A stretch of 64,000 nucleotides of DNA from a virus (Duplodnaviria; Heunggongvirae; Uroviricota; Caudoviricetes). The stretch's first letter is position 1. Each line of letters opens with the position of its first letter. Shown piece after piece: positions 28,345 to 64,000 of this stretch. The stretch is from IMG/VR virus record IMGVR_UViG_3300042891_002054, one strand, 5' to 3'. The notes beneath the pieces are model-generated. The model ran no database searches. It was not told the origin of the DNA and worked only from the letters and a program-made list of their open reading frames with translations. The position numbers and the translations under genes were made by a program.

Positions 28345-28794
28345 ATGAAAATTATTTGTCATAGAGGTAATCTAAACGGTCCAAATATTTTTACTGAGAA
28401 TCACCCTGATCAAATTGATTTATGTATATCAAAAGGGTATGATGTTGAAGTAGATCTTTGGTGTCATTATGGTGAATTTTATCTTGGTCACAATAAAGGA
28501 ATGGATAGAATTTCATTATCTTATTTGGTAGAACGGAAAGATAAATTGTGGATTCATTGTAAAAATCAAGATGCATTATTCGCTTTAAATAATCTTGGAT
28601 TTAATTATTTTTGGCATCAAGAAGATGATGTTACAATAACATCGCACGAATTTATTTGGGCATATCCTGGTAAACAAAAAAAACCATATAGAAACATTGT
28701 TATACTTGATTTTTCTGAAAAAGTTAATTTTGACTATTATAGAAATCTTGGTGTTTATGCCATTTGTGTTGATTATGTTGAGGAACGAGAATGA
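28345..28794 (+). CDS. Truncated glycerophosphodiester phosphodiesterase (GDPD)-like protein
   Basis: 'ICHRGNLNGPNIFTENHPDQIDLCISKGYDVEVDLW...YLGHN' matches the GDPD N-terminal catalytic region (HRG...EN...E.D). Only 149 aa. Confidence 0.5.
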   Translation: MKIICHRGNLNGPNIFTENHPDQIDLCISKGYDVEVDLWCHYGEFYLGHNKGMDRISLSYLVERKDKLWIHCKNQDALFALNNLGFNYFWHQEDDVTITSHEFIWAYPGKQKKPYRNIVILDFSEKVNFDYYRNLGVYAICVDYVEERE

Positions 28795-29483: not shown

Positions 29484-29489
29484 GAAATT

Positions 29490-30290
29490 ATGAAAAAAGT
29501 TATTATATCGCATATTTACAATGAAGAATATTTACTTCCGTGGTGGTTGAATCATCATAAAAAATATTTTGATCATGGTATTATTATTGATTATGATTCA
29601 ACAGATAGATCTGCAGAAATTGTAAAAGAAATTTGTCCAACGTGGGAATTTGTTAGATCAAAAAATTCAGAATATAATGAAGTTGAATTACAAAATGAAG
29701 TTTTTGAATATGAATCTAGATATGGTGAGGATGTGTGGAAAGCCTGTCTAAATGTAACTGAATTTTTAATTGGTGATTTTAATTCGCTAGATAGTACACT
29801 GGGGGTTAATATTATCCCTTGTTTGTATTTTATTGATGATCAAGAATTGCGAGACTCTTCCACATTATCATATGATAAACCGTTATGGGAAATTATTAAA
29901 ACTGGGTTAGACGTTCCATTTACGTTAGATTTTAGGGGGTCTAGAGCAATTCATACTCCTAATTTCAGATATCCTCCTGGAAGACATTTTAGAAGAATAA
30001 TTAATACTGATAGATTTATCATTTTCAATTATGGGTTTGCTCCTATGACAGAGGAATTCTATAAAAGAAAATTACAAGTTCAGGAATTAATTCCTTATGA
30101 GGAGAGAGTTAAACATAATGGTGGTGCACATACTGATGCATTAAATCCAAATGGATTAACTAGAGAACGGTTAGTTGAGATGTATAGAGAATATGTACCA
30201 ATTGATAATCCGCATTTTCCTAGATTAATGCCTAGGTGTACTGATTTAACTCATGTTATGAATCAATTTTTATCGCGATTACCGAAATGA
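29490..30290 (+). CDS. Putative glycosyltransferase (GT92/DUF23-like GT-A)
   Basis: 'VIISHIYNEEYLLPWWLNHHKKYFDHGIIIDYDSTD' resembles the GT92/GT2-like N-terminal region. Confidence 0.4.
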   Translation: MKKVIISHIYNEEYLLPWWLNHHKKYFDHGIIIDYDSTDRSAEIVKEICPTWEFVRSKNSEYNEVELQNEVFEYESRYGEDVWKACLNVTEFLIGDFNSLDSTLGVNIIPCLYFIDDQELRDSSTLSYDKPLWEIIKTGLDVPFTLDFRGSRAIHTPNFRYPPGRHFRRIINTDRFIIFNYGFAPMTEEFYKRKLQVQELIPYEERVKHNGGAHTDALNPNGLTRERLVEMYREYVPIDNPHFPRLMPRCTDLTHVMNQFLSRLPK

Positions 30291-31264
30291 AAATAGCCTT
30301 TCAAACAAATACAATTTGCCACCGTGGGACAACGGTGGCAGTTCTTGATTATGCAAAATATAATCAACAAATTCTAGGTAATGAAAGTATTATTGTTTAC
30401 CCAGAAAATTTTAACGATCCAGGAGTTAGCCTTGATTCATTAACTCAACAAGATGTTCTTGAGGAAGTTAAACGTCAATTTACCGTTATTGGTTACAACT
30501 CATTACAGGAATTAGATCAAATTATTGTTGATAATAATGTTGATGCCACTTATTTTATCAAAGGTGGTTTTAATGATGGTTTACTGACAACAAAATCTAA
30601 AAATTTAGTTCATGCCGTATTTCAGGCTAACCAACCGCATGGAGATAAGTACGCTTACATTTCAGAATGGTTATCTTCTCATATGAGTGGCGGTGAGATT
30701 GATTACGTTCCTCATATTGTTGATCTACCTAAAACAGCAAAAACAGATTACAGAGAAAAGTTAGATATCACTAAAGATAAAATTGTTGTTGGTAGGATTG
30801 GTGGGTTGCATCAGTTTGATATTAGATGGGTAATGCAAACAGTTGCTAATTTTGCTTATAATAACCCTAATTATGAATTTGTGTTTGTTAATACTGCTCC
30901 ATTTTTAAATCCTAGTTTACCTAATATTAAATTTATAGATCCTATTATTGATGAGCAAGAAAAAACTGATTTTATTTTAGCGTGTGATGCTATGATTCAT
31001 GCTAGAAGTGATGGTGAATCATTTGGTTTAGCAATTTGTGAGGGTTTATTTCACGATAAACCTGTTTTTGCTTATAATGGCGGAAGAGATCAACATCATT
31101 TACAATTATTAGAAGGTACTGGGTTGCTATACAATAACCCAGAAGATTTGTGGATAAAATTATTAAATATTAAAAATAATTATCCATATTCATATTCAAA
31201 ATTGGTTGAACAATTTACTCCTGAAACTGTTATGAAAAAATTTAAACAGGTATTTTTATCATGA
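30287..31264 (+). CDS. GT-B fold glycosyltransferase (GT4-like)
   Basis: C-terminal 'GESFGLAICEGLFHDKPVFAYNGG' matches the GT4 E-x7-E donor-binding motif. Confidence 0.5.
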   Translation: MKIAFQTNTICHRGTTVAVLDYAKYNQQILGNESIIVYPENFNDPGVSLDSLTQQDVLEEVKRQFTVIGYNSLQELDQIIVDNNVDATYFIKGGFNDGLLTTKSKNLVHAVFQANQPHGDKYAYISEWLSSHMSGGEIDYVPHIVDLPKTAKTDYREKLDITKDKIVVGRIGGLHQFDIRWVMQTVANFAYNNPNYEFVFVNTAPFLNPSLPNIKFIDPIIDEQEKTDFILACDAMIHARSDGESFGLAICEGLFHDKPVFAYNGGRDQHHLQLLEGTGLLYNNPEDLWIKLLNIKNNYPYSYSKLVEQFTPETVMKKFKQVFLS

Positions 31265-31953
31265 ATTCTGTTAGTATAACATGTATCGATTCATTGAATT
31301 ATATTGAGACTATAACTGCACTAAAATCTACGATTAAAACGGTAAAGGATAAAGTAAATCTTACGAAAATTTATTGGTTTAGTGATATTGATTTTCCTGA
31401 CACAATAGAAATTCCAGTTGTTTGGGTTAAAATAAACAGGATTAAATGCTATATAGAAGAATATAATTTTATAACTTTAAAATTAGTTCCTCATATTGTA
31501 ACTGAAGATTTTAATTTAATTATTCATGGAGACGGATTCGCTGTTAACCCTGATGCATGGGATAATGTATTTTTTGAATATGATTATATCGGGGCAGCAT
31601 GGGGTGATGGATTTGTTGGAAATGGTGGATTTAGCCTTAGAAGCAGAAAATTATATGATGCAATTCTTGATTTGAATATAAATTATTCAACATCTCAATT
31701 TCCAGAAGAAATATTGAATACTCCTACATTTTTTGTTATAGATTCAAACGGGAATAAATTCACTCCGGAGGATACTATTTTATGCAGAATATATAAGAAT
31801 ATATTATCTCAGGATTATGGGGTGAAATGGGCTCCGGTTTCTATTGCTGATAGGTTTAGTATTGAATCAAATATGCATTCTGAGTGGTTAGGGTTAAGTC
31901 TTGGGTTTCATGGTAAACATGGAGTTGCTCCGTATTATGGAGTAACATTATAA
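31261..31953 (+). CDS. Hypothetical protein
   Basis: Contains a 'GDGFVGNGGFSLRSRK' segment; I cannot identify it confidently. Confidence 0.35.
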   Translation: MNSVSITCIDSLNYIETITALKSTIKTVKDKVNLTKIYWFSDIDFPDTIEIPVVWVKINRIKCYIEEYNFITLKLVPHIVTEDFNLIIHGDGFAVNPDAWDNVFFEYDYIGAAWGDGFVGNGGFSLRSRKLYDAILDLNINYSTSQFPEEILNTPTFFVIDSNGNKFTPEDTILCRIYKNILSQDYGVKWAPVSIADRFSIESNMHSEWLGLSLGFHGKHGVAPYYGVTL

Positions 31954-31956
31954 TCC

Positions 31957-31985
31957 TTTACGAAAATTGATTTTTAGTATACAAT
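31957..31985 (+). promoter_or_regulatory. Sigma70-like promoter (TTTACG-N17-TACAAT)
   Basis: TTTACG 31957-31962, 17-nt spacer, TACAAT 31980-31985. Precedes the dehydrase gene. Confidence 0.4.
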
Positions 31986-32012
31986 ATAAAAAAACTTTGG
32001 AATTTTAAAATT

Positions 32013-33296
32013 ATGCAAACACAAGAAATGATTGAAGCGTTGTCAAAAACAGTTTTACCGAAATATGTAAAAAATTATGATAACTATCAAGAAGGCGATT
32101 TTGTTCAGTATTCTGGACAATTATGGGATGATAAAGAAATTTATGCAACTCTGGATACAATTTTAAATGGTAATTGGATTGTATCCGGTGAGAAAGTAAA
32201 TAAATTCCAGAGACTATTCAGTAAAAAATTTAATGTGAAACATTCGCATATGGTTAATTCCGGTAGCTCTGCTAATTTAGTTTTGATTACTGCAATGAAA
32301 AATCGCTTTAATTGGGAAACGGGTTCTGAGATTATTGTTTCTCCTGTTGGGTTTCCAACAACAATTTCTCCTATTGTACAAAATGGATTTACTCCAGTTT
32401 TTATTGATATTGAATTGGACACCTTAAATTTTAATGTAGATTTAATTGAAGATAAAATTACTGAGCGAACAAAAGCAATTTTTGTATCCCCTGTATTGGC
32501 CAATCCACCTGATATTGATAGATTGTTGCAAATTTGCGAGAGAAATAATATTATCTTATTAGGTGATAATTGTGATTCTCTTGGAACTCTTTGGAAAGAT
32601 AAATTAATTACTGATTATTATTATGCTTGGACAACTTCATTTTATCCTGCTCATCATATTAGTACTGGTGAGGGTGGAATGGTTTGTTCAAATGATAAAG
32701 AATTAATTGATCTTGCTAGAAGCGTTTCTTGGTGGGGCAGGGATTGTTATTGTGTTGGCGCTAATAATTTATTAGCATGCGGTACGTGTAAAAATAGATT
32801 TGATAGATGGCTTCCTGATTATGATGGTGTTATTGATCACAAATATATCTTTACAACAATTGGTTATAACTTGAAACCTCTTGATTTCCAGGGTGCAATT
32901 GGTATTGAACAATTAAACAAATTTGATGGGTTAGAATCAAAACGCAGGGAATATAAAAATAAAATTCAATCATTTATTGAATCAAATATTTCTGGTGTTA
33001 GAGTTATGAATTCAACAGCGGGATCTGACCCATCTTGGTTTGGTGTTCCTGTATTTTGTGAAACTCAAGAATTGAAAGAAAAGTTAGTTGCTTATTTTGA
33101 AGAAAATAAAATTCAAACTAGAAATTATTTTAGCGGAAATATTTTAATTCATCCTGGATATAAACATTTAGATGATTATAAAAAATATCCTAATTCCAAT
33201 TTAGCATTAAGTAATGTATTTTTCTTAGGGTGTTCACCGCTGTATAATGATAAAATTTTACATTATATTGAAAAGGTTTGTATTCAATGGAATTAA
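32013..33296 (+). CDS. PMP-dependent NDP-4-keto-6-deoxyhexose 3-dehydrase (E1/DdhC-ColD-like, DegT family) with predicted [2Fe-2S] motif
   Basis: DegT/DnrJ/EryC1 fold ('NSGSSANLVLITAM'). The usual PLP lysine is replaced by His in 'FYPAHHISTGEGG', as in E1/ColD dehydrases. Cysteine motif C-X57-C-X1-C-X8-C ('NCDS...RDCYCVGANNLLAC') closely matches the E1 [2Fe-2S] ligand spacing C-X57-C-X-C-X7-C. 427 aa. Confidence 0.65.
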   Translation: MQTQEMIEALSKTVLPKYVKNYDNYQEGDFVQYSGQLWDDKEIYATLDTILNGNWIVSGEKVNKFQRLFSKKFNVKHSHMVNSGSSANLVLITAMKNRFNWETGSEIIVSPVGFPTTISPIVQNGFTPVFIDIELDTLNFNVDLIEDKITERTKAIFVSPVLANPPDIDRLLQICERNNIILLGDNCDSLGTLWKDKLITDYYYAWTTSFYPAHHISTGEGGMVCSNDKELIDLARSVSWWGRDCYCVGANNLLACGTCKNRFDRWLPDYDGVIDHKYIFTTIGYNLKPLDFQGAIGIEQLNKFDGLESKRREYKNKIQSFIESNISGVRVMNSTAGSDPSWFGVPVFCETQELKEKLVAYFEENKIQTRNYFSGNILIHPGYKHLDDYKKYPNSNLALSNVFFLGCSPLYNDKILHYIEKVCIQWN

Positions 33297-34087
33297 ATGT
33301 TCTTGGTGGTAGCGGTTTTATTGGGGGTCGGTTCTGTGAACTTATCCCTAATACTATAAAAAATGATAGAAATGATTATGAAGTAAAAACTAATGATGTT
33401 GTTTACTTTATTTCAACAATTGATAATTATAATATACATACCGATCCTTATCTTGACATTGAAACTAATTTAACAACATTAATTAAAACATTAGAATCTT
33501 GTAAAGGTAAAGATGTAACATTTAATTTTATTAGTTCTTGGTTTGTTTATGGCGGGGATAATGTTTCCCCGTTAAAAGAAACATCTAGATGCGATGCAAA
33601 AGGTTTTTATAGTGCAACTAAAAGAGCTGCAGAACAATTACTAATAACTTATTGTGAAACATTTAATATAACGTACAGAATATTGCGAGTCGGTAATGTT
33701 CTTGGTGAACAAGATAAAAAAGTTTCTAGTAAGAAAAACGTTGTGCAATATATGATTAGTTTATTGAAAAAAGATGAACCGATTAAACTATATAATGGCG
33801 GTAATTTAATTAGAGATTATATCTATATTGATGATTTAGTCGAGGCAATTAATTTAATTGTAACTAAAGGTGAATTAAATTCTATTTACAATGTTAGTAC
33901 AGGAATTCCTTCTGTACTAGGTGATGTTATAAAATTTGCTGCTAAAAAATTGAAATCAAATTCAACAATTGAAATTGTTGATCCTGATTCTTCTTGGGGT
34001 GGAAATTATTTAGATATTTCAAAGTTAAAATCTCTCGGGTTTGTTCCGAAATATACTATTAATGATATTTTGGATAGATTAATTTAA
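33278..34087 (+). CDS. NAD-dependent epimerase/dehydratase (SDR)
   Basis: 'VLGGSGFIGGRF' Rossmann fold and catalytic 'YSATKRAAEQL'. Confidence 0.6.
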   Translation: MYSMELNVLGGSGFIGGRFCELIPNTIKNDRNDYEVKTNDVVYFISTIDNYNIHTDPYLDIETNLTTLIKTLESCKGKDVTFNFISSWFVYGGDNVSPLKETSRCDAKGFYSATKRAAEQLLITYCETFNITYRILRVGNVLGEQDKKVSSKKNVVQYMISLLKKDEPIKLYNGGNLIRDYIYIDDLVEAINLIVTKGELNSIYNVSTGIPSVLGDVIKFAAKKLKSNSTIEIVDPDSSWGGNYLDISKLKSLGFVPKYTINDILDRLI

Positions 34088-35937: not shown

Positions 35938-36741
35938 ATGCAAACTAATCAAGCTATTTTTATTATTGGAAGTCCAGGTTCTGGAAAAGATGTTGTAATT
36001 AGAGATATTTGTTCCAACTTTAATGTTGTTGAATTTGCATCAACTCAAATTGATGAAATGTTATCTAATGATATTGCATTTAAAAGGGCAAAATTTGAAA
36101 AACAATATTCTTTATTAGAGAACCGTTCTATTTTAGTAACAGCAAATTCATATGATTTAAATTTTGTTTTAACTAAAAGTGTTCTTGAATCAGTTGGGTA
36201 TGTAACACATCTGATTTTAGTGGAGGCTGATTTATCTACATCATACGATAGATTGCACAATAGAAAAAATTTAAAAGAATCATTTGATAGAATTGCAATG
36301 GGTAATTCTAATAAAACATCAATAATTGGGTTATTTCCATCAAATATTGTTATTAATAATTCTCAAGTATTAGATTTATCTGAATCAAGAGAATATGTTT
36401 CTAGTATATTAGATGATTTAACTTTTAAAACAAATTTAACTTTAGAAGATATTACAAAAGTTAAATTAAAGAAAAAATTAGTAAAAGGTACTGTTCCTGG
36501 GGATAGCGTAGATAATAGAGGTTTAACTCCTGGAACTTGGTCATCATATATTGGTGTATCAGAATCTTCTGATGTTTATTCTTGGGATTTATCCCCAATT
36601 GCAACTGGTCCTATGCAACAAGTAAAATCTAGTTCATCTGATATGCGAAGCGATCAAGATAAAGAAAACACTAGAAAAATTTTAAATAAAACAAAGGCTA
36701 TACTTTTTAAAAAAGTAGCAGTTCCAAAATCTATCGAATAA
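35938..36741 (+). CDS. P-loop kinase (polynucleotide-kinase-like N-terminal domain; no HAD phosphatase motif seen)
   Basis: 'IFIIGSPGSGKDVVIRDI' Walker A resembling the T4 Pnk kinase domain. Confidence 0.45.
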   Translation: MQTNQAIFIIGSPGSGKDVVIRDICSNFNVVEFASTQIDEMLSNDIAFKRAKFEKQYSLLENRSILVTANSYDLNFVLTKSVLESVGYVTHLILVEADLSTSYDRLHNRKNLKESFDRIAMGNSNKTSIIGLFPSNIVINNSQVLDLSESREYVSSILDDLTFKTNLTLEDITKVKLKKKLVKGTVPGDSVDNRGLTPGTWSSYIGVSESSDVYSWDLSPIATGPMQQVKSSSSDMRSDQDKENTRKILNKTKAILFKKVAVPKSIE

Positions 36742-40775: not shown

Positions 40776-41570
40776 ATGTTTAAAGAAAATAAGTATAGTA
40801 AAATTTATTATAAAATTATAGAAATCGCAAAAAATAGAGAATTTGATGGATATTCGGAAATTCATCATATAATACCTAGATGTTTAGGTGGAAATGATTC
40901 AAAAGAAAATTTAATAAAGTTAAAAGCACGAGAACATTATATTTGCCATTTATTGTTATCTAAAATGATTGACCATGATGGTATAAAATTTGCATTGCAT
41001 ATGATGACAACACTTAATAAAAATCAAGAAAGGGTTTATAAAATTAATTCTAGAATATACGAATATATAAAGAAATTAAATTCTGAAGCTTCTGTTAATC
41101 GTAATAATTATAGGGTATATGAAACTGGTAGATCAAAATATTTTGATCCTATAGAACAAAAATATAGATTTATAAAAGAAGGTGATTTTATTCCTGATTA
41201 TTTCACTAAGGGTTGGAATTCTGATTTTAAATCTGATATATCGCAAAAAAATAAAAATAGGGTTTATTATTATCACCCGAAAACTCTAGAGGTTAAAGCA
41301 TTTAAATCCGATCAAATTATTCCTGATGAGTGGATCAAAGGAAATCCAAATGCCGATACTTCTGATCTTACTAAAATAAGAGGAACAAATTATTATCATG
41401 ATCCTATTACAGGAGAAGAAATTCGGTCTTATAATTGTCCAAATGGGTGGATTGCTGGTAGATCTGTTATTTGGATTACTGATGGAATTAATAATAAACA
41501 ACATAACAAATATATAACCATACCTTTTGGGTATGTAAAAGGTCGAATAAACAAAAGAAAGGTAAATTAA
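40776..41570 (+). CDS. HNH homing endonuclease-like protein
   Basis: 'EIHHIIPRCLGGNDSKENLIKLKAREHYICH' HNH motif. Confidence 0.65.
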   Translation: MFKENKYSKIYYKIIEIAKNREFDGYSEIHHIIPRCLGGNDSKENLIKLKAREHYICHLLLSKMIDHDGIKFALHMMTTLNKNQERVYKINSRIYEYIKKLNSEASVNRNNYRVYETGRSKYFDPIEQKYRFIKEGDFIPDYFTKGWNSDFKSDISQKNKNRVYYYHPKTLEVKAFKSDQIIPDEWIKGNPNADTSDLTKIRGTNYYHDPITGEEIRSYNCPNGWIAGRSVIWITDGINNKQHNKYITIPFGYVKGRINKRKVN

Positions 41571-41573
41571 AGC

Positions 41574-42434
41574 ATGTCAAATAATGTTAAAAATAGTGGA
41601 ATAGAAGTTAAAATGATTGCAGATTCTTATTTTGATGGTATTGAAAATAGAATTTGTACATTGCAATTGAGGTATCATCGATATATACATCAGGAATTTA
41701 TGACACATCGTGTATTCTCTAGGTCTGCGTCTAGTTCTAGAGCTATTCCTATTAGCAAAATTATTGCTCAAGTATGGAATGATCCTGCTATGCCAGTTCA
41801 TTGGGGGGCTAATGTTGCTGGTATGCAAGCTAAATCTGAATTAAGTGGGTTAAAATTAACAGCTGCTAAATTTGTCTGGAAATTATCTGCTAAATTTGCT
41901 TGTGTATTTGCTTATGTGTTTAGTAAAATTGGTTTACATAAACAAATCGGTAATCGTATTCTTGAACCATGGCAGTATATTAATGTTATTGTTACTTCAA
42001 CTGAATGGGAAAATTTCTTTAATTTAAGAATTCATCCTGATGCTCAACCAGAAATTCAGGAATTAGCAAAAGCAATTTATGATGCAATTCAAAATAGTCA
42101 ACCAAAAAAAGTTGAGCATGGTGAATGGCATTTACCTTATATTACTGACACAGAACGCGAATTATGTGATGAAGATATTCTATTAAAATGTTCAACAGCT
42201 CGTTGTGCTAGAGTATCTTATAGCAATCATGATGGATCAAATCCTCATGTAAGAAAAGATGTTGAGTTACATGATCGTTTAGTTGGTTCTGAGCCGTTAC
42301 ATGCAAGCCCAGCTGAACACCAAGCAACTCCAGGCGAATCTGATTTTTATTACAGAAATTTTAAAGGTTGGATTCAATACAGAGATAGAATTGAACAAAT
42401 GTTATATAATAAAGAGGAAAATATTAATGAGTAA
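41574..42434 (+). CDS. thyX: Flavin-dependent thymidylate synthase ThyX
   Basis: ThyX signature 'THRVFSRSASSSRAIP' (RHRxxSxxxxSxR-type), with 'RYHRYIHQEF' upstream. Confidence 0.8.
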   Translation: MSNNVKNSGIEVKMIADSYFDGIENRICTLQLRYHRYIHQEFMTHRVFSRSASSSRAIPISKIIAQVWNDPAMPVHWGANVAGMQAKSELSGLKLTAAKFVWKLSAKFACVFAYVFSKIGLHKQIGNRILEPWQYINVIVTSTEWENFFNLRIHPDAQPEIQELAKAIYDAIQNSQPKKVEHGEWHLPYITDTERELCDEDILLKCSTARCARVSYSNHDGSNPHVRKDVELHDRLVGSEPLHASPAEHQATPGESDFYYRNFKGWIQYRDRIEQMLYNKEENINE

Positions 42435-48109: not shown

Positions 48110-48511
48110 ATGTGGATTTATAATGATATTGAATTAATTGAAGTTCCTGATAATGCAATTGGATTTGTATATATTATTACAAATAAATTAAATGGTAAAA
48201 AATATATTGGGAAAAAATTATTTCATTCATCTAAATTTATCCAAAGAAATAAAAAAAGAAAACGTGTTAAGATTGAGTCTGATTGGCAAAAATATTATGG
48301 TTCTAATGAAACATTAAAATCTCTGGTTCAAGAACATGGTACAGAATCTTTTACCAGAGAAATTCTTCATATATGTTATTCAAAATCTCAGGCTTCATAT
48401 CTTGAAGCAAAAGAACAATTTTCAAGGGATGTAATCCTTTCTGATCAATATTATAATGATTGGATTTCTGTTAAAGTTACTAGAAAACATCTACAGAAAT
48501 TCCAATTATAA
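48110..48511 (+). CDS. GIY-YIG nuclease-domain protein (truncated seg-like homing endonuclease)
   Basis: 'IGFVYIITNKLNGKKYIGKK' GIY-YIG motif. At 133 aa there is no DNA-binding domain. Confidence 0.6.
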   Translation: MWIYNDIELIEVPDNAIGFVYIITNKLNGKKYIGKKLFHSSKFIQRNKKRKRVKIESDWQKYYGSNETLKSLVQEHGTESFTREILHICYSKSQASYLEAKEQFSRDVILSDQYYNDWISVKVTRKHLQKFQL

Positions 48512-48514: not shown

Positions 48515-48543
48515 TTTACTAATTTATAATGTTATAGTATAAT
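48515..48543 (+). promoter_or_regulatory. Sigma70-like promoter (TTTACT-N17-TATAAT)
   Basis: TTTACT 48515-48520, spacer ending 'gttatag', TATAAT 48538-48543. Confidence 0.45.
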
Positions 48544-48564: not shown

Positions 48565-49260
48565 ATGTGTGCAGTGATTGGAGCAGTTTTAAATAATCCA
48601 AACATAACAGACTTTGACTTATTGTTGAAGGTTTTTATCGAATCAAAAATAAGAGGATTACATGCAACTGGTCTTTCTTATATCAAAAACAATAGAGTAA
48701 TAACTGAAAAGTTACCAATTCCTGCGGATCAATTCCCTTTTGATTTTCAAGAATATGTTAATGAGGATGGGAATTTGTATTTAGTTGGTCATTGTCGGTA
48801 TTCAACTTCTGATCTAGAATTTAATCAACCTATTTCTAATGATAATTTCTCTGTTGTTCATAATGGAGTAATTACTCAAGAACTTCCTGAACACTGGAAA
48901 GAATTGTATGGTTATGATTGTACTACAAGAAATGATACTGAATTATTACTTCATACACTAGAAGATAATAAATCTTCTCTAGAAGTTTGGCAAAATTCTT
49001 CATTGGCTGTTTGTGAACTCTATAAAGATAAAACTCTGAGATTTTATCGTAATGGCAAGCGTCCGCTATATTCAGCACAATTAAGTAATGGCTGGTTAGT
49101 AACATCAACTGAAAATATACCAAATCGAGCTGGAGTCAATGCGAGCAGCTCGATAATTGATGTTAACACATACTACTGTGTTAATGAATTTAAACTTCTT
49201 AAGCAAGCTTCTGGAGTGAATTCTCTAGATTTGCAGCAGGTAGATTATGCAAAAATATGA
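48565..49260 (+). CDS. Class II (Ntn) glutamine amidotransferase domain protein
   Basis: N-terminal nucleophile 'MCAVIG', 'GHCRYSTS' (GHxRYxTxG), 'HNGVITQ' (HNGeIxN) and 'RNDTELL'. Stand-alone 231-aa glutaminase domain. Confidence 0.7.
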   Translation: MCAVIGAVLNNPNITDFDLLLKVFIESKIRGLHATGLSYIKNNRVITEKLPIPADQFPFDFQEYVNEDGNLYLVGHCRYSTSDLEFNQPISNDNFSVVHNGVITQELPEHWKELYGYDCTTRNDTELLLHTLEDNKSSLEVWQNSSLAVCELYKDKTLRFYRNGKRPLYSAQLSNGWLVTSTENIPNRAGVNASSSIIDVNTYYCVNEFKLLKQASGVNSLDLQQVDYAKI

Positions 49261-50125
49261 TTCAAAAAATTTTACATGGGGTATGGAAATTGAATGGGGC
49301 GATGTTCATCGAGCGTTAGAAATCCCTACTCATCTTGGTTCCTGGGAACATGCTGAAACTGATATTATTAATTTAACAGAACCTTATAAAAACGTTTGTT
49401 GTGATCCTCTAGGTCTTGAGCCTCCTTTTGGCGGTGAGATCAATACTCGCCCAACAAAAACTTGGCAAGAACAGGTTGAACGTTATTTTGACTTAGAACA
49501 ATTTTTTATTGATAACGGTAATCAACCAACTGTTTGTACAACATCTCATACTCATATTCATTGTTTTGTTCCTGGGTTAAAAGATGATATTGATGCATTA
49601 AAACGATTAACAAAATATATTAAAGAAAATCAACAAGTTGCTATTGATCGAGTATATGGATTTTATGAACCAGCTAATATGAAGTTGGCTAAAGGTGCTA
49701 AAATGTATATGAAATTTGATGGTGGCCGCCCAATGCCGGATTATATGTGTAATAACATTATTAATTTAACAACTGATTTTGATCATTTTGTCAAATTACA
49801 TGCTGCCGGTAAAGATGGCGTTTCAATGGGTCGCCCGTTTCGTTATGCCATCAACATGTATTCAATGAAACATATTGGTACTGTTGAGTTTAGGCTCTTT
49901 AGATCAACGATGAACCGAGTTCAAATTGAATCTTGTTTTAGGTTTGTTAATGATTTTATGGATGCTGCATTAAACGATGGTCCGGATGTTCTAGAATTAA
50001 TTATGGAAAATAATTATGAATTTCCTCCAATGATTTGGGATTTAAATCAATTTTTAGGTTGGATCGATACAAAATATGACAAAGAACGTGGAAAAAAAGC
50101 TCGTGAATACCTTGAAGTTGAATAA
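49247..50125 (+). CDS. GCS2/amidoligase-like carboxylate-amine ligase (glutamine-synthetase fold)
   Basis: N-terminal 'FTWGMEIEWGDV' matches the YbdK/GCS2 'FTlGvElE' ATP-grasp-like start, with 'GGEINTRP' downstream. Confidence 0.5.
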   Translation: MQKYDSKNFTWGMEIEWGDVHRALEIPTHLGSWEHAETDIINLTEPYKNVCCDPLGLEPPFGGEINTRPTKTWQEQVERYFDLEQFFIDNGNQPTVCTTSHTHIHCFVPGLKDDIDALKRLTKYIKENQQVAIDRVYGFYEPANMKLAKGAKMYMKFDGGRPMPDYMCNNIINLTTDFDHFVKLHAAGKDGVSMGRPFRYAINMYSMKHIGTVEFRLFRSTMNRVQIESCFRFVNDFMDAALNDGPDVLELIMENNYEFPPMIWDLNQFLGWIDTKYDKERGKKAREYLEVE

Positions 50126-50663
50126 ATGCTCTAGGGATCAATTTATTTCAGCAATATCAACTGATAAAGGTGATAATTTTGCTAGAACTTTTGTTGCTAA
50201 AGCTGATATGCAAGAGCAATGGGATTATTGTATTGGATTATTTGATGGCTCTGAATTGTGTGGAGCAATTATAACAACAATTTCAAAAAGAACTCCACCT
50301 GTTGCTAATCTTCAATTACTGCATACCTTTGTTAAACACAGAGGTAAAGGTGTTGCTAAAATCTTATGCGAGGATTCATTAAAATCCGTTAGAGCAAATG
50401 GTGCAAAATATTTTCGAGTTTCTTCTGAAATCTCAGCAATTGCTTTTTATGAGAAGATTGGATTCAAATTTTGGGGTAAACAGAAAAGTGGGTGTCAGTT
50501 AAGCATCTTTAAAATCGTTGATGATACTTTTGTTGGTGGTGATTATGATTATGCAGACTCTGTAATCTATAATGCAGTCAATAAAAGAGGTAAAGGTGGA
50601 TGTGTTGAAGTCTTTGATTTAAAAAATTTTAAAAAAGTGCTTGACCTAGAGCAATTTTTATAG
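50076..50663 (+). CDS. GNAT family N-acetyltransferase (start uncertain; alternative ATG at 50208)
   Basis: 'HRGKGVAKILCEDSL' (motif A, R/Q-x-x-G-x-G/A) and 'AFYEKIGFKF'. The N-terminal 50 nt overlaps the upstream gene in another frame. Confidence 0.6.
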   Translation: MTKNVEKKLVNTLKLNKCSRDQFISAISTDKGDNFARTFVAKADMQEQWDYCIGLFDGSELCGAIITTISKRTPPVANLQLLHTFVKHRGKGVAKILCEDSLKSVRANGAKYFRVSSEISAIAFYEKIGFKFWGKQKSGCQLSIFKIVDDTFVGGDYDYADSVIYNAVNKRGKGGCVEVFDLKNFKKVLDLEQFL

Positions 50664-50669
50664 TAAAAT
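50641..50669 (+). promoter_or_regulatory. Sigma70-like promoter (TTGACC-N17-TAAAAT) with 'aaaaaagtgc' upstream element
   Basis: Same upstream element as the promoters at 5371 and 5460. Located inside the 3' end of the GNAT gene, 35 nt before the ATG at 50704. Confidence 0.5.
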
Positions 50670-50703
50670 AAGTTATCTTTAACAAAAACTTGAAAATTAT
50701 ATT

Positions 50704-52029
50704 ATGAAAACTGAAGATATTGCTGATCTGAGAACTATTTTATATCTACACACCAATAAGAATACTGGTAGAGTTTATCTTGGAGTTCATAGAACAGATG
50801 AAGATGATGATGGTTATATTACTTCATCAACATGCCCTTATTTTAAGCAAGATTGGACCCTTGGTTTGTTTAAAAAGCGCGAAAAATTGTTTGAAGGTAG
50901 TTATCGAGAAGCAATTAATTTAGAACATCAATTATTAGCAAAATATGATGCTGTAAATAATCCTAATTTTTATAATAAATCTAATGGTGGCGGGGCATTA
51001 GTTGATAAAAATTATATTGTTGATGAAAAAGTCTTTCAAGAAGCATGTGAATGGATTGAAGGTAAAAAAACAGAAACTGTTGTCGAGCTTCCTGTTTCTG
51101 GTCTATATAGACCAGATCACATGGAAAAATTGTACACCAATATAAAATTTGGTATGTATGAAACAGTTGAATATTCTGTAGAAATTTTATATACACTTGA
51201 TAAAAATCAAGTTAGAATGAATCTTTTAGATGAAAAACATGTAGAAGAATTAGTTGACTATTTTAAATACCCTGCTGAAGCAAGAAAAAATTTAACTCCA
51301 ATAATTGTTTCAATAGATAAAAATAAATTAAAAATTATTATTGATGGTAATCATCGAATTAATGCAGCATATAGAGCTGGTTGGTCAACTATTCCAGTAA
51401 TCCTTTTAGATGATAGTGAATTTTTTAATGATGTGAGAAATTATACACAGCTTGGTTTATTGTTAAATGATAAACCTAATATTACTTTGGGTAATAATTT
51501 GGATGATTTAGATAGACAAATTTATATTATTTCTAAAGAATTAGATTATTTAGAGATTGATTCTGATGAATTCATCAGTATACTTAAATCTAGATTTGGT
51601 GGAAAAGGAACAGGTCGTAAAGGTGCTATCTGGAAAGATAGTTCTATTACAAAACGATGCAAATCAATTGCTGCAAAAAATGCAGAATTAGCTCTACAAC
51701 AAGGAAAAAATTTTATTTCTTATTCTAAAACTAAATTGGATAATTATAAACGTGCTTATAAATTTAATTTTCCTAAAGTTGCAGTAATTACTCAAGGGAT
51801 TGATTCAATTTGTAATGCTGGTTTTGGTGGTATCACATCAATGATGAGCGAAGAAAATCGTTCTGAAGGTGTAATTATCGTTCATTACGGTAGCAAATAT
51901 TCCAATTGGGAAGATAGAAATTATATGATTGATAAATTTAATAAACAAGTTGAAAAAATTTTAGCTCCAGGGTTATCTGTTAAATTAGTTTTCCTGGATG
52001 CATTTAAAGAAGGATTTGAACATTGGTAG
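50704..52029 (+). CDS. GIY-YIG nuclease domain fused to ParB/sulfiredoxin-like domain protein
   Basis: N-terminal 'ILYLHTNKNTGRVYLGVHRT...E...N' (GIY-YIG) and a middle 'IIVSIDKNKLKIIIDGNHRINAAYRAGWSTIPVILL' (ParB N-domain GxxRxxA motif). 441 aa. Confidence 0.55.
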   Translation: MKTEDIADLRTILYLHTNKNTGRVYLGVHRTDEDDDGYITSSTCPYFKQDWTLGLFKKREKLFEGSYREAINLEHQLLAKYDAVNNPNFYNKSNGGGALVDKNYIVDEKVFQEACEWIEGKKTETVVELPVSGLYRPDHMEKLYTNIKFGMYETVEYSVEILYTLDKNQVRMNLLDEKHVEELVDYFKYPAEARKNLTPIIVSIDKNKLKIIIDGNHRINAAYRAGWSTIPVILLDDSEFFNDVRNYTQLGLLLNDKPNITLGNNLDDLDRQIYIISKELDYLEIDSDEFISILKSRFGGKGTGRKGAIWKDSSITKRCKSIAAKNAELALQQGKNFISYSKTKLDNYKRAYKFNFPKVAVITQGIDSICNAGFGGITSMMSEENRSEGVIIVHYGSKYSNWEDRNYMIDKFNKQVEKILAPGLSVKLVFLDAFKEGFEHW

Positions 52030-53042
52030 ACTACAGACTAAAAGAAAATCGTAGAGAAGCATTTATCCGCTGGTATGCATGGTCACTAAAATACAAAGAC
52101 TGCGATCCAGCGGTATGGGCAACTAATTACCTGAACCAAAGATACCAACACAACGATGAACAACGTCTTTGGTTCTGTTGGCTCTATGGTAATACCTATT
52201 ACCTGCCAACTGCTTGGGTTCTAATGAATGAGTTTCCAGATTTTGAATTAGCAACAGTTTCTAGAATAGAGCAGTGGAATAGTAAAAATTATAAACGGTT
52301 AAGATATCAAACAGATACAAAATGGAACAAAGGTCATCTCCCAGCAATGTTTGAGTCCTATCAAAAGTTTATTGGTAATGGTACTCAACGTGAACGATTA
52401 GAATCATTTTATGGGAATACACCTGAGCAATCTTTTAACAACCTCTGGGATGGAATCAAATCCAATTTGCATAAGTTTGGTCGCTATTCTACTTGGTTCT
52501 ATCTACAACACCTGCGCCATACTGGGCAAATTGATATCGAACCTGATAACCTTATGCTTAATGATTATAGCGGCTCCCGTTCTCACAGGAATGGGTTATT
52601 ACTTGCCCTGGGTCGAGATGATGAAGTTGATACACCTTTAACTGCTGATCAATATAAATCTCTAGAATTAGAAGCTCGTGATATTCTAAATGAAATCCAA
52701 AATCGTTTTCCTGACTTAAATGCGGACAATTTCCAATTAGAGACAGTACTGTGTAGTTTCAAGAAGATATTCCGAGTGAAGCATGGCAGATATTTAAGAT
52801 ATTACCTAGACCGTCAGGCAGAAGAGATACAGCAATTAGAACAAGACCAATGGCTAGGAATAGACTGGCAAGTGCTCTGGGATTCTAGAACAGAAACTCT
52901 AATCCCAGAATTAAATCTGAAAACTGGTATAGATAAATCTCTATTTGACTCATTCCTAATAACAGGTAATATCAAATCTCTTAATATGATGTTCGATAAT
53001 CCTGAAATAAAATTAAATAATAATCTACTAGAATTTATTTAA
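52023..53042 (+). CDS. Hypothetical protein (Trp/Tyr-rich), last gene of the amidoligase module
   Basis: 339-aa ORF overlapping the stop of the upstream gene. I see no confident motif. Confidence 0.4.
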   Translation: MVDYRLKENRREAFIRWYAWSLKYKDCDPAVWATNYLNQRYQHNDEQRLWFCWLYGNTYYLPTAWVLMNEFPDFELATVSRIEQWNSKNYKRLRYQTDTKWNKGHLPAMFESYQKFIGNGTQRERLESFYGNTPEQSFNNLWDGIKSNLHKFGRYSTWFYLQHLRHTGQIDIEPDNLMLNDYSGSRSHRNGLLLALGRDDEVDTPLTADQYKSLELEARDILNEIQNRFPDLNADNFQLETVLCSFKKIFRVKHGRYLRYYLDRQAEEIQQLEQDQWLGIDWQVLWDSRTETLIPELNLKTGIDKSLFDSFLITGNIKSLNMMFDNPEIKLNNNLLEFI

Positions 53043-53044: not shown

Positions 53045-53088
53045 TAAAGCTTTACTTTATCTGATACTCATAGTATAATAAAGTAAAG
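53045..53088 (+). promoter_or_regulatory. Promoter (TTTACT-N17-TATAAT) embedded in the loop of a 12-bp perfect inverted repeat
   Basis: The arms agctttacttta / taaagtaaagct flank 'tctgatactcatagtataa'. The -35 lies in the left arm and the -10 (TATAAT 53074-53079) in the loop. Confidence 0.45.
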
Positions 53089-53152: not shown

Positions 53153-53211
53153 GACTAAATCCAAATAATAAAAATTAATAAGTAGTCTAAGTCAAAATCG
53201 ACCACTGAGCG

Positions 53212-53291
53212 AATCTATCCGATCTTTTCCAAATACCGCTGATCTTCTACGAATCCATCCGATCTTTTCCAAATACCGCTGATCTTTTCCA
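53212..53291. repeat. Two direct 38-40-nt repeats (gaatc(t/c)atccgatcttttccaaataccgctgatctt)
   Basis: Adjacent copies at 53212-53250 and 53251-53291 with 2-3 mismatches. Confidence 0.75.
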
Positions 53292-53819: not shown

Positions 53820-55499
53820 TTATTTACCTTTAATTAGAAATTCTTGTTGTATATATTTAATATTAATAGAATTTTCAGGATTTTGTATTAGTACACGATT
53901 ATCCGGAGTTTTTACAATAACCTCTAGATCAACTGTAGGAGAGATTACTTGTTTATTGGTATTTGTTATTAATATTGTTTGTGGATCAGATTTAATTAGA
54001 TATTCATTAGGAATATGTTTAATTAAGATCAGATAATTTTTACTTAACCTAATAACTATTAATTTTGCATCAGCAGATACTATTGCGCCAGCTAGAGCAT
54101 TTAATTGTATTTTTGTAGTTAGAGCAGCTGCTGTTGTTGTGTTGGACTTACACGATAGAGAAACTAGCTGGATACTATTTGTTAGCGCAGCTTTATTGGT
54201 TACAACACAAGTATCGATAGATGCTAGTTGTATCTGGGTAGTTAACCCAGCTGATGCAGTGGTTCTTGTACTTGTTGCAGCAGCTAATTGAATAGAATTA
54301 ATTAATTGTGCAGAGTTTGTTACAACACAATAGTCACGAGATTCTAGTTGTATCTGGGTTGTTAAACCAGCTGAGCTGGAACTTCTAGAAGAAACAGTTG
54401 TAGCTAATTGGATAGAATTAATTAATTGTGCAGAGTTTGATACAAAACAAGTATCGATAGATGCTAATTGTATCTTGGTGGTTAAACCAGCTGAGCTGGA
54501 ACTTCTAGAAGAAACAGTTGCAGCTAGTTTAATAGAATTAATTAATTGTGCAGAGTTTGTTACAACACAAGTATCGATAGATGCTAATTGTATCTTGGTG
54601 ATTAGACCAGCATTATTAACTATTGTTCTAGCAGTAATCCCACTAGCTAATTTAATGTTATTTGTTAGTGCAGCTCTAGCAGTACAGTTAGTTTTTACTG
54701 TGGAGAAAACTGCAGGATCAGCAATAAATGCTGAAACTGAAGAAATTGACTGAACCTCAGCATCAAGTTGTATTTGAGTGTTTAATGTACCAGATGTAGA
54801 AACCGATGAAATACTAGGTACTGCTATTAATTGGATACTTGTATCTAGATCAGCCCTATTGGTTACAACACAATAGTCACGAGATTCTAGCTGTATAGCA
54901 GTTGTTAAATCAGCAGATGCAACAGTTCTTGTACTTGCTGCAGCAGCTAATTGGATAGAATTAATTAATTGTGCAGAGTTTGTTACAACACAAGCATCGA
55001 TAGATTCTAATTGTATAGCAGTTGTTAACGAAGATCTTTGAGAAACTACACTAGAACTAGAGGTAGCTAAATTTACACTTGTCGTTAAGTTGGCAGATGT
55101 TCTTGCTAGTGCTGCAATTGAAGTATTTAATTTAACTTGGGTTGCTAAATCTGCTCCGGTTCTTGCTAGAGCAGCAGCACTAGCCGCAAGATTAATCTGT
55201 GTATTAAGTGTGAGTGTTCCTAGTGTAACAACACTTCTAGCAACAGCAGTAAATCGTATAGCAGTTGTTAGATTAACAGATGTTCTAACCGTTGAGATTG
55301 CAACAGCTGCAAATTGTATAGCAGTTGTTAGGTTACTAGAAGATTTTGCAGTACAAGTAATCGAAGAATTTAACGGTTTTGCTACCAATAAATTGACCGA
55401 TACTGTGCATGAGCATGTAACTGTCGCAGCAAGCTCAGCTGCTGGACCTATCCCTGAGGATGATATTGGATTAGAACTTAAAGGAAAAAACCCTAGCAT
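53820..55499 (-). CDS. Repeat-containing fibre-like structural protein (40-aa / 120-nt tandem repeats)
   Basis: Internal repeats of the type '...LTTxIQLASIDTCVVTNSAQLINSIQLAA...'. The DNA shows 120-nt periodicity between about 54180 and 54980. Ser/Thr/Ala-rich. Confidence 0.6.
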   Translation of the reverse strand: MLGFFPLSSNPISSSGIGPAAELAATVTCSCTVSVNLLVAKPLNSSITCTAKSSSNLTTAIQFAAVAISTVRTSVNLTTAIRFTAVARSVVTLGTLTLNTQINLAASAAALARTGADLATQVKLNTSIAALARTSANLTTSVNLATSSSSVVSQRSSLTTAIQLESIDACVVTNSAQLINSIQLAAAASTRTVASADLTTAIQLESRDYCVVTNRADLDTSIQLIAVPSISSVSTSGTLNTQIQLDAEVQSISSVSAFIADPAVFSTVKTNCTARAALTNNIKLASGITARTIVNNAGLITKIQLASIDTCVVTNSAQLINSIKLAATVSSRSSSSAGLTTKIQLASIDTCFVSNSAQLINSIQLATTVSSRSSSSAGLTTQIQLESRDYCVVTNSAQLINSIQLAAATSTRTTASAGLTTQIQLASIDTCVVTNKAALTNSIQLVSLSCKSNTTTAAALTTKIQLNALAGAIVSADAKLIVIRLSKNYLILIKHIPNEYLIKSDPQTILITNTNKQVISPTVDLEVIVKTPDNRVLIQNPENSINIKYIQQEFLIKGK

Positions 55500-61600: not shown

Positions 61601-61632
61601 GTTGTAAAATTTTTACTAAAAGGAAGTAAACG

Positions 61633-64000
61633 TGGCTATATCTCAGATTAATTATTCAAATACATTTTCACATTGGTTGATTTCAACTAATCAATTGATC
61701 GATAATGTGAATACATTAAATTCAGGCAATTTTTTTAAGAATAATGGTACATTATTTTTAAATTCTCCTGGAACTGCTCTGTATGTTGCGAATACTTCTG
61801 CTTTTAGTGGGAATGTAACATTTAGCGGTAGCGGTTCAGTTTTCGTTAAAATTCAAGTTCCTACTTTAGCAACAAATACTGTTACTATAACTGATCCACT
61901 AAGTTTGGTTGCTTCTGGTAATGTTGCAACTAATGGTTGGATAATTTCTTCTGGGTCAATTAGGTCTAACACTGCGCTATTAACTAATGCAATCTCTATT
62001 TCTAACGGAACTGTTGTTGCTAACAATTTAATAAAATCTAATGAGTTGATTCAAGGTAATAATCTTGTAATTTCTGAATCTATCAGATCAAATAATTATG
62101 CTTGGGCATCAAATACCTTTTCTGAATTTTTAACTGTTAATAATTCAGTAATATTTAATACAGCTAATGCATATGTCAAATACAGCAGTAATGGTCAATT
62201 ATACAAAATAGTATCTACTGAAGATATACTAAACGCTAACACGTTCTTACAAGATTATACCAATAAAGCCAATTCGTTCAACACAACAAGAACTGATAAC
62301 GCTAACACGTTCTTGCAAGATTATACAAATAAAGCCAATTCATTCAACACAACAAGAACCGATAACGCCAACACGTTCTTACAAGATTACACCAATAAAG
62401 CCAACACCTATAATACAACAAGAACTGATAACGCTAACACGTTCTTACAGGATTATACAAATAAAGCCAATTCATTTAATGTAACAAGAACCGATAACGC
62501 TAACACGTTCTTACAGGGTTATACAAATAATGCTAACACGTTCTTGCAAGGTTATGCAGATAGAGCGAACACGTTCAATACAACAAGAACTAATAATGCT
62601 AATACGTTCTTGCAAGGTTATGCAGATAGAGCGAACACGTTCAATACAACAATAACTAATAATGCTAACACGTTCTTGCAAGGTTATGCAGATAGAGCTA
62701 ATACGTTCAACACAACAAGAACCGATAATGCAAATACGTTCTTACAGGGTTATGCAGATAGAGCTAATAATTTTGCTAATCTAGCTCTAATTGCAGCTAA
62801 CACTTTCCTTCAAGCAAATGATGGTATAACTTTATCTCGTGCTAGAGCTTACACCGATTTAGCGAATAATTTTGCTAATCTAGCTCTAATTGGAGCTAAT
62901 ACTTTCCTTCAAGCAAATGATGGTATAACTTTATCTCGCGCTAGAGCTTACACCGATTTAGCCAACACCTATAATACAACAAGAACTAATAATGCAAATA
63001 CTTTCCTTCAAGCAAATGATGGAATCACATTAACCGCTGCTAGATCTTATGCTGATGGTAAATTTTTACCAATTTTTACATCAAATAATGTGGTAAGATT
63101 GCCTAATACTACATTTAACATTTTAGCAGCGCAAGATTTGGTTACTGGTAATCTTAGTGTAACTGGAACATTTATTTCCTATGGTTCTTCTGCAACTGAT
63201 AGTGCATCATATATATTCCAATCAAATACTGGTTCAACCATTTCACCTAGCACAGATATTATTGTTAATCGTGGTATTGGTGAACCAAATACAATTTTAA
63301 ATATCGGTAATACTGCTGTATTAAGATGGTATAATGCTGGTAAAATTTGGCAGATTAAAGATGTAGAAACAAGTACATTCTATCAAGTTATTTCACAAAA
63401 AGAATTAGATATAGCGAATACTTTCCTACAAGCGAATGATGGGATTACATTAACTGCAGCTAGAGCATATACAGATTTAGCGAACAGTTTTAATACATCA
63501 AGAACCAATGCAGCTAATACTTTCCTACAAGCGAATGATGGAATCACATTAACTGCAGCTAGAGCATATACAGATTTAGCGAACAGTTTTAATACATCAA
63601 GAACCAATGCAGCGAATACTTTCCTACAAGCGAATGATGGGATTACATTAACTGCAGCTAGAGCATATACAGATTTAGCGAACAGTTTTAATACATCAAG
63701 AACCAATGCAGCTAATACTTTCCTACAAGCGAATGATGGAATCACATTAACTGCAGCTAGAGCATATACAGATTTAGCGAACAGTTTTAATACATCAAGA
63801 ACCAATGCAGCTAATACTTTCCTACAAGCGAATGATGGAATCACATTAACCGCTGCTAGAAATTATACTGATCTAGCGAACAGTTTTAATACATCAAGAA
63901 CCAATGCAGCTAATACTTTCCTACAAGCGAATGATGGAATCACATTAACCGCTGCTAGAAATTATACTGATCTAGCGAACAGTTTTAATACATCAAGAAC
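61633..64000 (+). CDS. Tail-fibre protein with 22-aa and 33-aa tandem repeats, 3'-partial (GTG start)
   Basis: Open frame from GTG 61633 to the window end, not in the ORF track because it has no stop. It carries about eight 66-nt repeats 'NANTFLQDYTNKANSFNTTRTD' (62228-62760) and six or more 99-nt repeats 'ANTFLQANDGITLTAARAYTDLANSFNTSRTNA' (63410-64000). Confidence 0.65.
62228..62760 (+). repeat. 66-nt in-frame tandem repeat array (about 8 copies) within the fibre gene
   Basis: Unit aacgctaacacgttcttacaagattataccaataaagccaattcgttcaacacaacaagaactgat, with later copies drifting to GYADRANTFNTT. Confidence 0.8.
63410..64000 (+). repeat. 99-nt in-frame tandem repeat array (6 or more copies, continues past window end)
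   Basis: Period 99 nt: 'cgaacagttttaatacatcaagaaccaatgcagc' recurs at 63481, 63580, 63679, 63778, 63877 and 63976. Confidence 0.85.

Follow-up and report, generated by a model that had tools for sequence, protein, structure and literature searches.

The virus record IMGVR_UViG_3300042891_002054 of IMG/VR belongs to an uncultured freshwater T4-like myovirus known from metagenome contigs, and we analyzed a stretch of 64,000 nucleotides (nt) of its DNA, hereafter the window. Five same-strand open reading frames (ORFs) from the window's ORF list form the gene string considered here. They encode a glutamine amidotransferase (GAT), a carboxylate-amine ligase (amidoligase), a GNAT protein, a protein with GIY-YIG and ParB-like domains, and an amino-acid:DNA transferase (AADT), as summarized in Table 1. 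An earlier annotation made from the letters alone (the original prediction) had described five co-directional genes as a candidate modification system, and all five are in place. Neighboring genes overlap at their starts and stops, by 14 nt between GAT and the amidoligase, by 7 nt between the ParB-like gene and AADT, and by 50 nt, perhaps fewer if GNAT starts later, between the amidoligase and GNAT. Its relationship to cyanophages is only distant, with 47% identity in the DNA polymerase, and megablast against 50,697 phage records found no nucleotide-level relative of either the module or the window.

Table 1. Predicted features of the gene string and its genomic context. Positions are those of the window unless a locus name is given.
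Feature	Position	Strand	Family match or basis
TET/JBP dioxygenase (Tet_JBP, 460 aa) and adjoining P-loop kinase (Ploopntkinase3)	L226:1-1524 (window about -8353 to -6830)	minus	
SegE-type GIY-YIG homing endonuclease (133 aa)	48110..48511	+	PF19835, E 5.5e-35
Sigma-70-like motif TTTACT-17-TATAAT	48515..48543	+	10/12 match
Stand-alone class II (Ntn, Cys1) glutamine amidotransferase (GAT), 231 aa	48565..49260	+	PF13522
ATP-dependent carboxylate-amine ligase (amidoligase), glutamine-synthetase/GCS2 fold, divergent Amidoligase_2 branch	49247..50125	+	AlphaFold2 model, Foldseek
GNAT N-acyltransferase	50076..50663	+	PF13673, E 2e-11
GIY-YIG + ParB/Srx + C-terminal alpha/beta protein	50704..52029	+	Predicted folds, conserved residues
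Amino-acid:DNA transferase (AADT, formerly aGPT-Pplase2; aGPT-Pplase clade 2)	52023..53042	+	PF18724, PF18746

The last gene of the string is the diagnostic one. Its Trp/Tyr-rich product of 339 amino acids (aa), which had been called uncharacterised, matched PF18724 with 79 bits (cut-off 26.2; E 5e-22) and PF18746 with E 2e-6. In tblastn, 93% of its length aligned at approximately 28% identity with its homologue in ViI-like phages (Ackermannviridae). Relatives at approximately 70% identity were present on 167 IMG/VR contigs, and AADT relatives at E <= 1e-3 numbered 1458. Judged by this homology, the protein is the key enzyme of the string, an AADT, and as such the signature of post-replicative thymidine hypermodification. 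An enzyme of this kind would swap the phosphate of 5-phosphomethyl-deoxyuridine (5-PmdU) in DNA for an N or O nucleophile. Sequence searches of the PDB with the amidoligase profile, GAT, and AADT gave no matches or weak ones.

The GAT product matched PF13522 with E 3.7e-11 (43.6 bits, cut-off 27). When a profile built from 11 homologues was compared with Escherichia coli GlmS (4amv), Cys1, R78-Y79-T81, H99-N100-G101, and N123-D124 were aligned, and the glutamine-binding elements R-[W/Y]-x-T, H-N-G, and D-x-E were invariant across the 11 phage homologues together with Cys1. The class II glutaminase proposed in the original prediction thus passed the profile search with its nucleophile and all glutamine-binding residues matched to GlmS, and GAT is predicted to make ammonia from glutamine. 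In having the Cys1 nucleophile and the full glutamine-binding set it resembles PurF, GlmS, and AsnB, but unlike them it has no fused acceptor domain, and its presumed acceptor is AADT or the amidoligase. GAT was found in 91 related loci carrying both a TET/JBP dioxygenase (TET) and AADT, and its best matches among cultured phages were LUZ24-like phages with GATase/amidoligase clusters.

The amidoligase scored below the Pfam cut-off for Amidoligase_2 (PF12224; 14.9 versus 22 bits), whereas more distant members of its family passed it (P0280, 42.6 bits; P0336, 33.7 bits; P0269, 24.9 bits). Its AlphaFold2 model had a mean predicted local distance difference score (pLDDT) of 85 and a predicted template-modeling score (pTM) of 0.87. 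The top Foldseek matches of this model were YbdK/GCS2 (1.3e-4), followed by glutamine synthetase (GS), GshA/GshF, and PafA, with probabilities of 0.85-1.0 and template-modeling (TM) scores of 0.35-0.47. Conserved acidic, His, and Arg residues were E14, E16, E64, H101/103/105, R196/199, E214, and R216. The fold of the GCS2/GS-type ligase that had been proposed was therefore upheld by the model and the structure search, although the protein's own Pfam profile score is below threshold. A profile search of 1.84e9 representatives retrieved 344 clusters of the family. Among them, amidoligase domains were fused to a 5-hydroxymethyl-deoxyuridine (5-hmdU) DNA kinase, GNAT, GATase, a low-molecular-weight (LMW) phosphatase, and a TET-associated glycosyltransferase (TAGT). 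The fusions to the 5-hmdU DNA kinase and to the TAGT tie the ligase to DNA modification.

The GNAT assignment agrees with a clear Pfam match (Table 1), as the original prediction had it, and the enzyme probably uses acetyl-CoA. According to jackhmmer it belongs to the same family as a 213-aa GNAT-like gene found in relatives without an amidoligase, and tblastn found no match to it in cultured phages.

Scans of the window with hidden Markov models (HMMs) and Pfam detected no TET/JBP, no dUMP hydroxymethylase, and no 5-hmdU kinase, in agreement with the original prediction, which had reported no hydroxymethylase there and had left the substrate base unspecified. The window is 100% identical to stretches of the JGI contig 3300044641 Ga0453727_0000035 (108 kb), and positions 8355-20603 of the locus L226 equal window positions 1-12249 at 100% identity. 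On the same contig, a TET/JBP dioxygenase gene and an adjoining P-loop kinase gene lie 6.8-8.4 kb upstream of window position 1, with TET itself at 6.8-8.2 kb (L226:142-1524). The TET product matched the TET profile of the relatives with 8e-185 and was 49-52% identical to their TETs, and the kinase orthologues in the relatives matched PF18751 with E 2.8e-7. A degenerate TET-motif scan of IMG/VR did not return this phage among the matches listed. The presence of TET/JBP and a P-loop kinase on the same contig indicates a route from thymine via 5-hmdU to 5-PmdU. By homology, thymine is the substrate base, and the missing hydroxymethyl group comes from a TET/JBP thymine dioxygenase whose gene lies a short way beyond the window. 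With TET, kinase, and the five-gene module in one genome, the whole pathway would be carried, but in two separate parts. The direction taken by the original prediction, namely hypermodification of a pyrimidine base, is upheld for thymine by AADT together with TET and the kinase on the same contig. The TET/kinase pair stands next to tail-tube, UvsY, and UvsW genes.

Two genes in the window were considered for the missing steps and rejected. The P-loop protein at 35938-36741, considered as the 5-hmdU kinase, had no phage matches and resembled such enzymes only at the Walker A motif; it is also ruled out by the real kinase homologue beside TET. The ThyX-like gene at 41574-42434 was examined as a hidden hydroxymethylase, but its family is annotated as thymidylate synthase, and TET makes such a role unnecessary. 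Its Pfam match to Thy1 was weak and partial (E 1.9e-8), and its divergent phage family shares 40-50% identity with genes of Myxococcus phage Mx1 and of PAK_P1-like, N4-like, and ICP1 phages.

In approximately 110 related IMG/VR loci, the genes follow the order TET-GAT-[amidoligase]-GNAT-[ParB or other]-AADT-kinase. Approximately 60% of these clusters have no amidoligase yet carry an orthologous GAT (50-70% identity), ParB was present only in amidoligase-containing clusters, and a few minimal clusters consisted of TET-AADT-kinase only. In relatives such as L102 and L033, TET and ParB lie within approximately 4 kb of each other. AADT was 54-72% identical to the AADT of the window in the 91 GAT-containing loci but only 28-31% identical in the three GAT-less TET-AADT-kinase loci, although the TETs of the latter were as close as the others (43-48% identity). 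This divergence of AADT despite similar TETs suggests that a distinct AADT clade travels with GAT.

In the relatives, the slot between the gp41 helicase gene and DUF6267 holds the modification cluster; in the present phage it holds a sugar-nucleotide/glycosyltransferase cluster (19839-34087), and the GAT-to-AADT string now lies 3' of nrdA and a SegE homing endonuclease gene, an arrangement shared by the close relative L101. The separation of the string from the dioxygenase and kinase by approximately 55 kb is an unusual feature. The ratios of nonsynonymous to synonymous substitution rates (dN/dS) against L101 were 0.13 for GAT, 0.08 for the amidoligase, 0.11 for GNAT, and 0.14 for AADT, compared with 0.11 for nrdA. 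Such purifying selection on the four genes shows that the relocated module is functional.

The GIY-YIG-ParB protein consists of a GIY-YIG domain (residues ~10-100), a ParB/Srx nucleotide-binding domain (NBD; ~150-300), and an alpha/beta domain (~310-435). Across 35 distinct homologues, Y14, G27, Y38, S41, E74, Q169, and G215 were conserved in all, and N91 and R171 in 34. The GIY-YIG core, with its Tyr, Tyr, Glu, and Asn all present, is the best-conserved part, so both folds of the fusion that had been recognized from the letters were borne out, with their key residues conserved. The predicted C-terminal alpha/beta domain was not matched to the C-terminal domains of ParB proteins. The gene itself behaves as a hypervariable, swapped cassette: its product is 29% identical between the window and L101, compared with 77-91% for the flanking genes, and in many relatives the slot is empty or occupied by unrelated genes.

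A cassette of this kind could lie outside the pathway altogether, as a selfish Seg-type homing endonuclease or mobile nuclease residing in a permissive slot of the operon, with the ParB-like part as a DNA-binding or nuclease module. We consider this improbable. Experiments have shown that the TET subclass accompanied by GATase, kinase, and AADT requires ParB-like proteins as activators (O'Toole et al., PNAS 2026; PMC13229309). The closest structures of the ParB domain (MxParB, CcParB, Noc, and KorB) are those reported for the published TET activators, conservation extends to Q169 and R171 of the NBD motif, and cognate-pair specificity could equally account for the fast divergence. By analogy with those activators, the GIY-YIG-ParB protein is likely to activate the TET thymine dioxygenase. 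It may be a fast-diverging TET activator with cognate specificity, a mobile Seg-like endonuclease, or both, since the two readings are compatible. More speculatively, it could be a nuclease that tells unmodified DNA apart.

From these data we consider it highly probable, on homology, that the string is a thymidine hypermodification module. Probably, the five genes constitute the tailoring half of a post-replicative pathway for which a full stepwise explanation can be given. In the first step, the TET/JBP 5-methylpyrimidine dioxygenase would oxidize thymine in replicated DNA to 5-hmdU, activated on double-stranded DNA by the ParB-domain protein. The adjacent P-loop kinase of the Ploopntkinase3 family would then phosphorylate 5-hmdU to 5-PmdU; both steps are assigned by homology. 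In the third step, AADT would displace the phosphate of 5-PmdU with a nucleophile, homology indicating the type of reaction. In the fourth, the nucleophile would be glutamine-derived ammonia supplied by GAT, and the product 5-aminomethyl-dU. In the fifth, the amidoligase would use ATP to join a carboxylate, possibly that of an amino acid such as glutamate, to the amine, and GNAT would then N-acylate an amine that is free. At the end of this predicted pathway, C5 of thymine would bear a side chain with an amide, and this side chain would block the nucleases of the host.

The last two steps are held more loosely than the first three. Step 4 is modeled on PurF, in which pyrophosphate is displaced by ammonia, and the proposed displacement of a phosphate-type group at carbon would mirror that reaction. 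On this analogy, and because GAT accompanies AADT in approximately 60% of clusters without the amidoligase or another evident ATP-dependent activator of carboxylates and a distinct AADT clade goes with GAT, the use of GAT-derived ammonia by AADT is a serious possibility, though one to which we give somewhat less than an even chance. The acylation of the amine in step 5 is a tentative proposal that we hold with similar reserve; in its favor are the contexts of amidoligase homologues in two other phages (see below) and the fusions of the family to 5-hmdU DNA kinase, GNAT, and TAGT.

The main competitor for these two steps treats GAT and the amidoligase as one glutamine-dependent amidation unit with the logic of asparagine or glutamine synthetases. 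AADT would add an amino acid of the Gly/Ser/Glu type to 5-PmdU, the amidoligase would activate its carboxylate with ATP, GAT would supply the ammonia that converts it to a carboxamide, and GNAT would acetylate the remaining amine. GS-fold enzymes classically take ammonia as the amine. Several further observations speak for this scheme and weigh against ours: the family includes a GATase-Amidoligase_2 fusion protein (P0336); the GAT stop and the amidoligase start overlap by 14 nt; GATase genes stand beside amidoligase genes in PaP3/LUZ24-like phages; and the characterised AADTs all use amino acids, not ammonia (PMC8989533). Our own scheme is weakened as well by the lack of any GAT-AADT fusion among the best 120 AADT homologues and by the restriction of the GAT-less AADT comparison to three loci. 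Its early steps are weakened by the upstream genes, which lie approximately 55 kb from the string instead of adjacent to it: the kinase product (179 aa) was read over its first 44 residues, and its Pfam match to Ploopntkinase3 was flagged as weak. Against the amidation scheme stand the approximately 60% of clusters with an orthologous GAT that have no amidoligase or other evident ATP-dependent carboxylate activator, as well as a phage with an amidoligase and no GAT (see below). The family is also fused to the kinase, GNAT, the LMW phosphatase, and the glycosyltransferase, and a fusion therefore shows a shared pathway and not, by itself, channeling of ammonia. We therefore rate the supply of ammonia to AADT above amidation by a GAT-amidoligase unit, which we regard as unlikely.

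The phage without GAT is Simon (PQ683277.1, locus L001, record positions 7108-23938), a cultured but unannotated sewage phage of 61 kb and 62% GC, whose genome is complete and carries an amidoligase but no GAT, TET, or GNAT. Its thymidine hypermodification cluster is complete and has the order AADT - FAD oxidoreductase - amidoligase - LMW phosphatase - 5-HMUDK - Nmad5 - ThyA-like - HD, the last two being a ThyA-like hydroxymethylase and an HD hydrolase. Compared with PaMx11, the Simon amidoligase stands where PaMx11 has GNAT in a 5-aminomethyl-dU route of the PaMx11 type (PMC8989533). Simon could be a tractable system for the amidoligase reaction. In the Vibrio phage 2.275.O (MG592671.1, L002:7896-9970), the gene immediately before QueF encodes a homologue of the amidoligase (24% identity), within a 7-deazaguanine set that also has QueC, an Ntn amidohydrolase, FolE, and a YhhQ-like transporter. 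QueF makes the aminomethyl base preQ1. An acylated preQ1 derivative is hinted at in this jumbo phage. An aminomethyl nucleobase is thus the common denominator of the three contexts of the amidoligase, namely the window type, Simon, and 2.275.O.

It is also conceivable that the module acts not on DNA but on a peptide or protein, or that it synthesizes a small molecule, for example a nucleotide-derived anti-defence metabolite, the alternative that the original prediction had offered. The best cultured-phage matches of GAT, in LUZ24-like phages with GATase/amidoligase/RimK/GGCT systems, could be read in this way, and folds like those of the amidoligase and GNAT serve generally in the handling of metabolites. 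Yet AADT belongs to the same translationally coupled gene string, the string lies between TET/JBP and a DNA-kinase homologue in approximately 110 related loci, and 5-hmdU DNA kinases and TAGTs occur as fusion partners in the amidoligase family. The metabolite finds little support beside these fusions, which point to DNA modification, and we consider a non-DNA product very improbable.

The kind of gene set found here has been catalogued before. Lee et al. (2021; PMC8989533) described a route from 5-hmdU via 5-PmdU, formed by 5-hmdU kinase (5-HMUDK), to an amino-acid adduct formed by AADT and subsequent tailoring. They also reported a TET_JBP subgroup in place of the dUMP hydroxymethylase, and metagenomic contigs on which 5-hmdU kinase and aGPT-Pplase2 are joined by glutaminotransferase and amidoligase domains, the latter two without an assigned function. 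O'Toole et al. (2026; PMC13229309) showed that phage TET/JBP proteins are thymine dioxygenases, one subclass of which needs a ParB-like activator on double-stranded DNA, and that the ParB-dependent enzymes are 'consistently linked' with GATases, P-loop kinases, and AADTs; the downstream chemistry was not addressed. The system is accordingly not of an undescribed kind, contrary to the original prediction, its enzyme combination having been recorded in 2021 and 2026. In the literature we found no paper that says which reactions are catalyzed by the GATase, GS-fold ligase, or GNAT of these clusters.

Like the neighborhoods of 5mYOX clade C1 (PMC13229309), the phage combines TET/JBP without an adjacent C5-methyltransferase with a ParB fold, GATase, P-loop kinase, and AADT, and the nearest ParB structures are likewise those of Myxococcus xanthus and Caulobacter crescentus. 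It differs in that its ParB has a conserved N-terminal GIY-YIG domain, unmentioned in that text, and in that TET and the kinase lie approximately 55 kb from ParB, GAT, and AADT, whereas in relatives they are neighbors. Moreover, ParB is missing from the cluster in many sister phages whose TET belongs to this clade. Unusual here are the fusion of GIY-YIG to ParB and the division and relocation of the cluster.

AADT/aGPT-Pplase2 and a putative P-loop kinase of the 5-hmdU-kinase type have counterparts in the thymidine pathways known from M6, ViI, PaMx11, and SP10 (Lee et al., 2018; PMC8989533), and GNAT is shared with PaMx11, whose enzyme acetylates 5-aminomethyl-dU (PMC8989533). In contrast to these four phages, 5-hmdU would arise here from TET oxidation of DNA and not from a dUMP hydroxymethylase, and the module has no pyridoxal phosphate (PLP) decarboxylase, radical SAM isomerase, or FAD oxidase but a GATase and a GS-fold ligase instead. 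The GS-like fold and the pairing with a class II GATase are as in Amidoligase_2, GCS2-YbdK, and GS proteins, including the LUZ24-like systems, but the partners of the present family are 5-hmdU kinase, AADT, TAGT, and QueF and not the RimK/GGCT peptide-ligase partners of those systems.

The surroundings of the string are rich in nucleotide-metabolism genes, as had been noted: nrdB, nrdA, the ThyX-like gene, MazG, and an epimerase are neighbors, and the dNMP kinase was confirmed too, though far upstream at 6666-7295. Directly 5' of GAT lies the SegE gene (Table 1), which adjoins the module and is absent from the original prediction; SegE occupies the same junction in L101. The SegE endonuclease has no part in the pathway; its gene is probably mobile and marks the site at which the module came to lie next to nrdA. 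A free-standing HNH homing-endonuclease-type gene likewise lies in the nucleotide-metabolism region (40776-41570), and its absence from the matching place in the relatives L101 and L225 suggests recent mobility. The sigma-70-like motif that had been taken for the string's own promoter is present, but we gave it no weight as a promoter because such matches occur at chance frequency in the surrounding 31% GC region (36 found versus 40 +/- 5 expected). A second TTTACT-17-TATAAT copy is located at 53051-53079, just past the AADT stop, and in the intergenic region after AADT a 40-bp unit is directly repeated at 53210-53286 (1.9 copies, 97% matches).

Elsewhere, the window carries a sugar-nucleotide/glycan biosynthesis set that is large and unusual for a T4-like phage (2249-5362 and 19839-36741). 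It includes RmlA/B/C-like proteins, several epimerases/dehydratases, a DegT aminotransferase, GT2 glycosyltransferases, and a methyltransferase, as well as a HAD-nucleotidyltransferase fusion, HtrL_YibB, DUF5672, a WDGH domain, and a cytidylyltransferase-like protein. Its target may be DNA (5-hmU), the virion, or the host surface. Tail-fibre-like genes at 61620-64000 and 53820-55499 (minus strand) are rich in tandem repeats, namely a 99-bp unit in 5.9 copies at 63413-64000 (96% matches), 66/99-bp units at 62230-63049, and a 120-bp unit at 54199-54611. The 99-bp array forms the right end of the window, and several metagenome assemblies break inside it; for the left end, no exact match was found in IMG/VR. 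Fifteen tRNA genes at 5509-8332 are interleaved with a YqeY-like protein gene and the dNMP kinase gene. A gp46/Rad50-like SMC_N gene (window 1-1650; L226:8031-10004; 657-aa product) starts to the left of the window and may contain an intein, judging from a faint intein-splicing match.

Taken to its full extent, the scheme would have a stand-alone PurF-type glutaminase and a dedicated AADT clade aminate 5-PmdU in DNA, the amidoligase build an amide (e.g. gamma-glutamyl), and GNAT cap it, while the GIY-YIG-ParB protein could cut unmodified DNA; as a whole this combination is doubtful. If true, it would be a glutamine-dependent 5-aminomethyl-dU route replacing the glycine-plus-FAD-oxidase route and leading to a thymidine hypermodification not yet described, and the GIY-YIG domain on the ParB activator would couple modification to the degradation of host or competitor DNA. 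The GAT-specific AADT clade, the three aminomethyl contexts, and the fusions together give a testable order of reactions and predicted product masses. Replacement of the GIY-YIG-ParB cassette offers a way to study the co-evolution of ParB activators and TET dioxygenases. With hypermodified thymidines, phages shield their DNA from restriction and from CRISPR nucleases, and chemistries for labelling or sequencing DNA can draw on the enzymes involved; the cluster type is abundant in freshwater T4-like phages.

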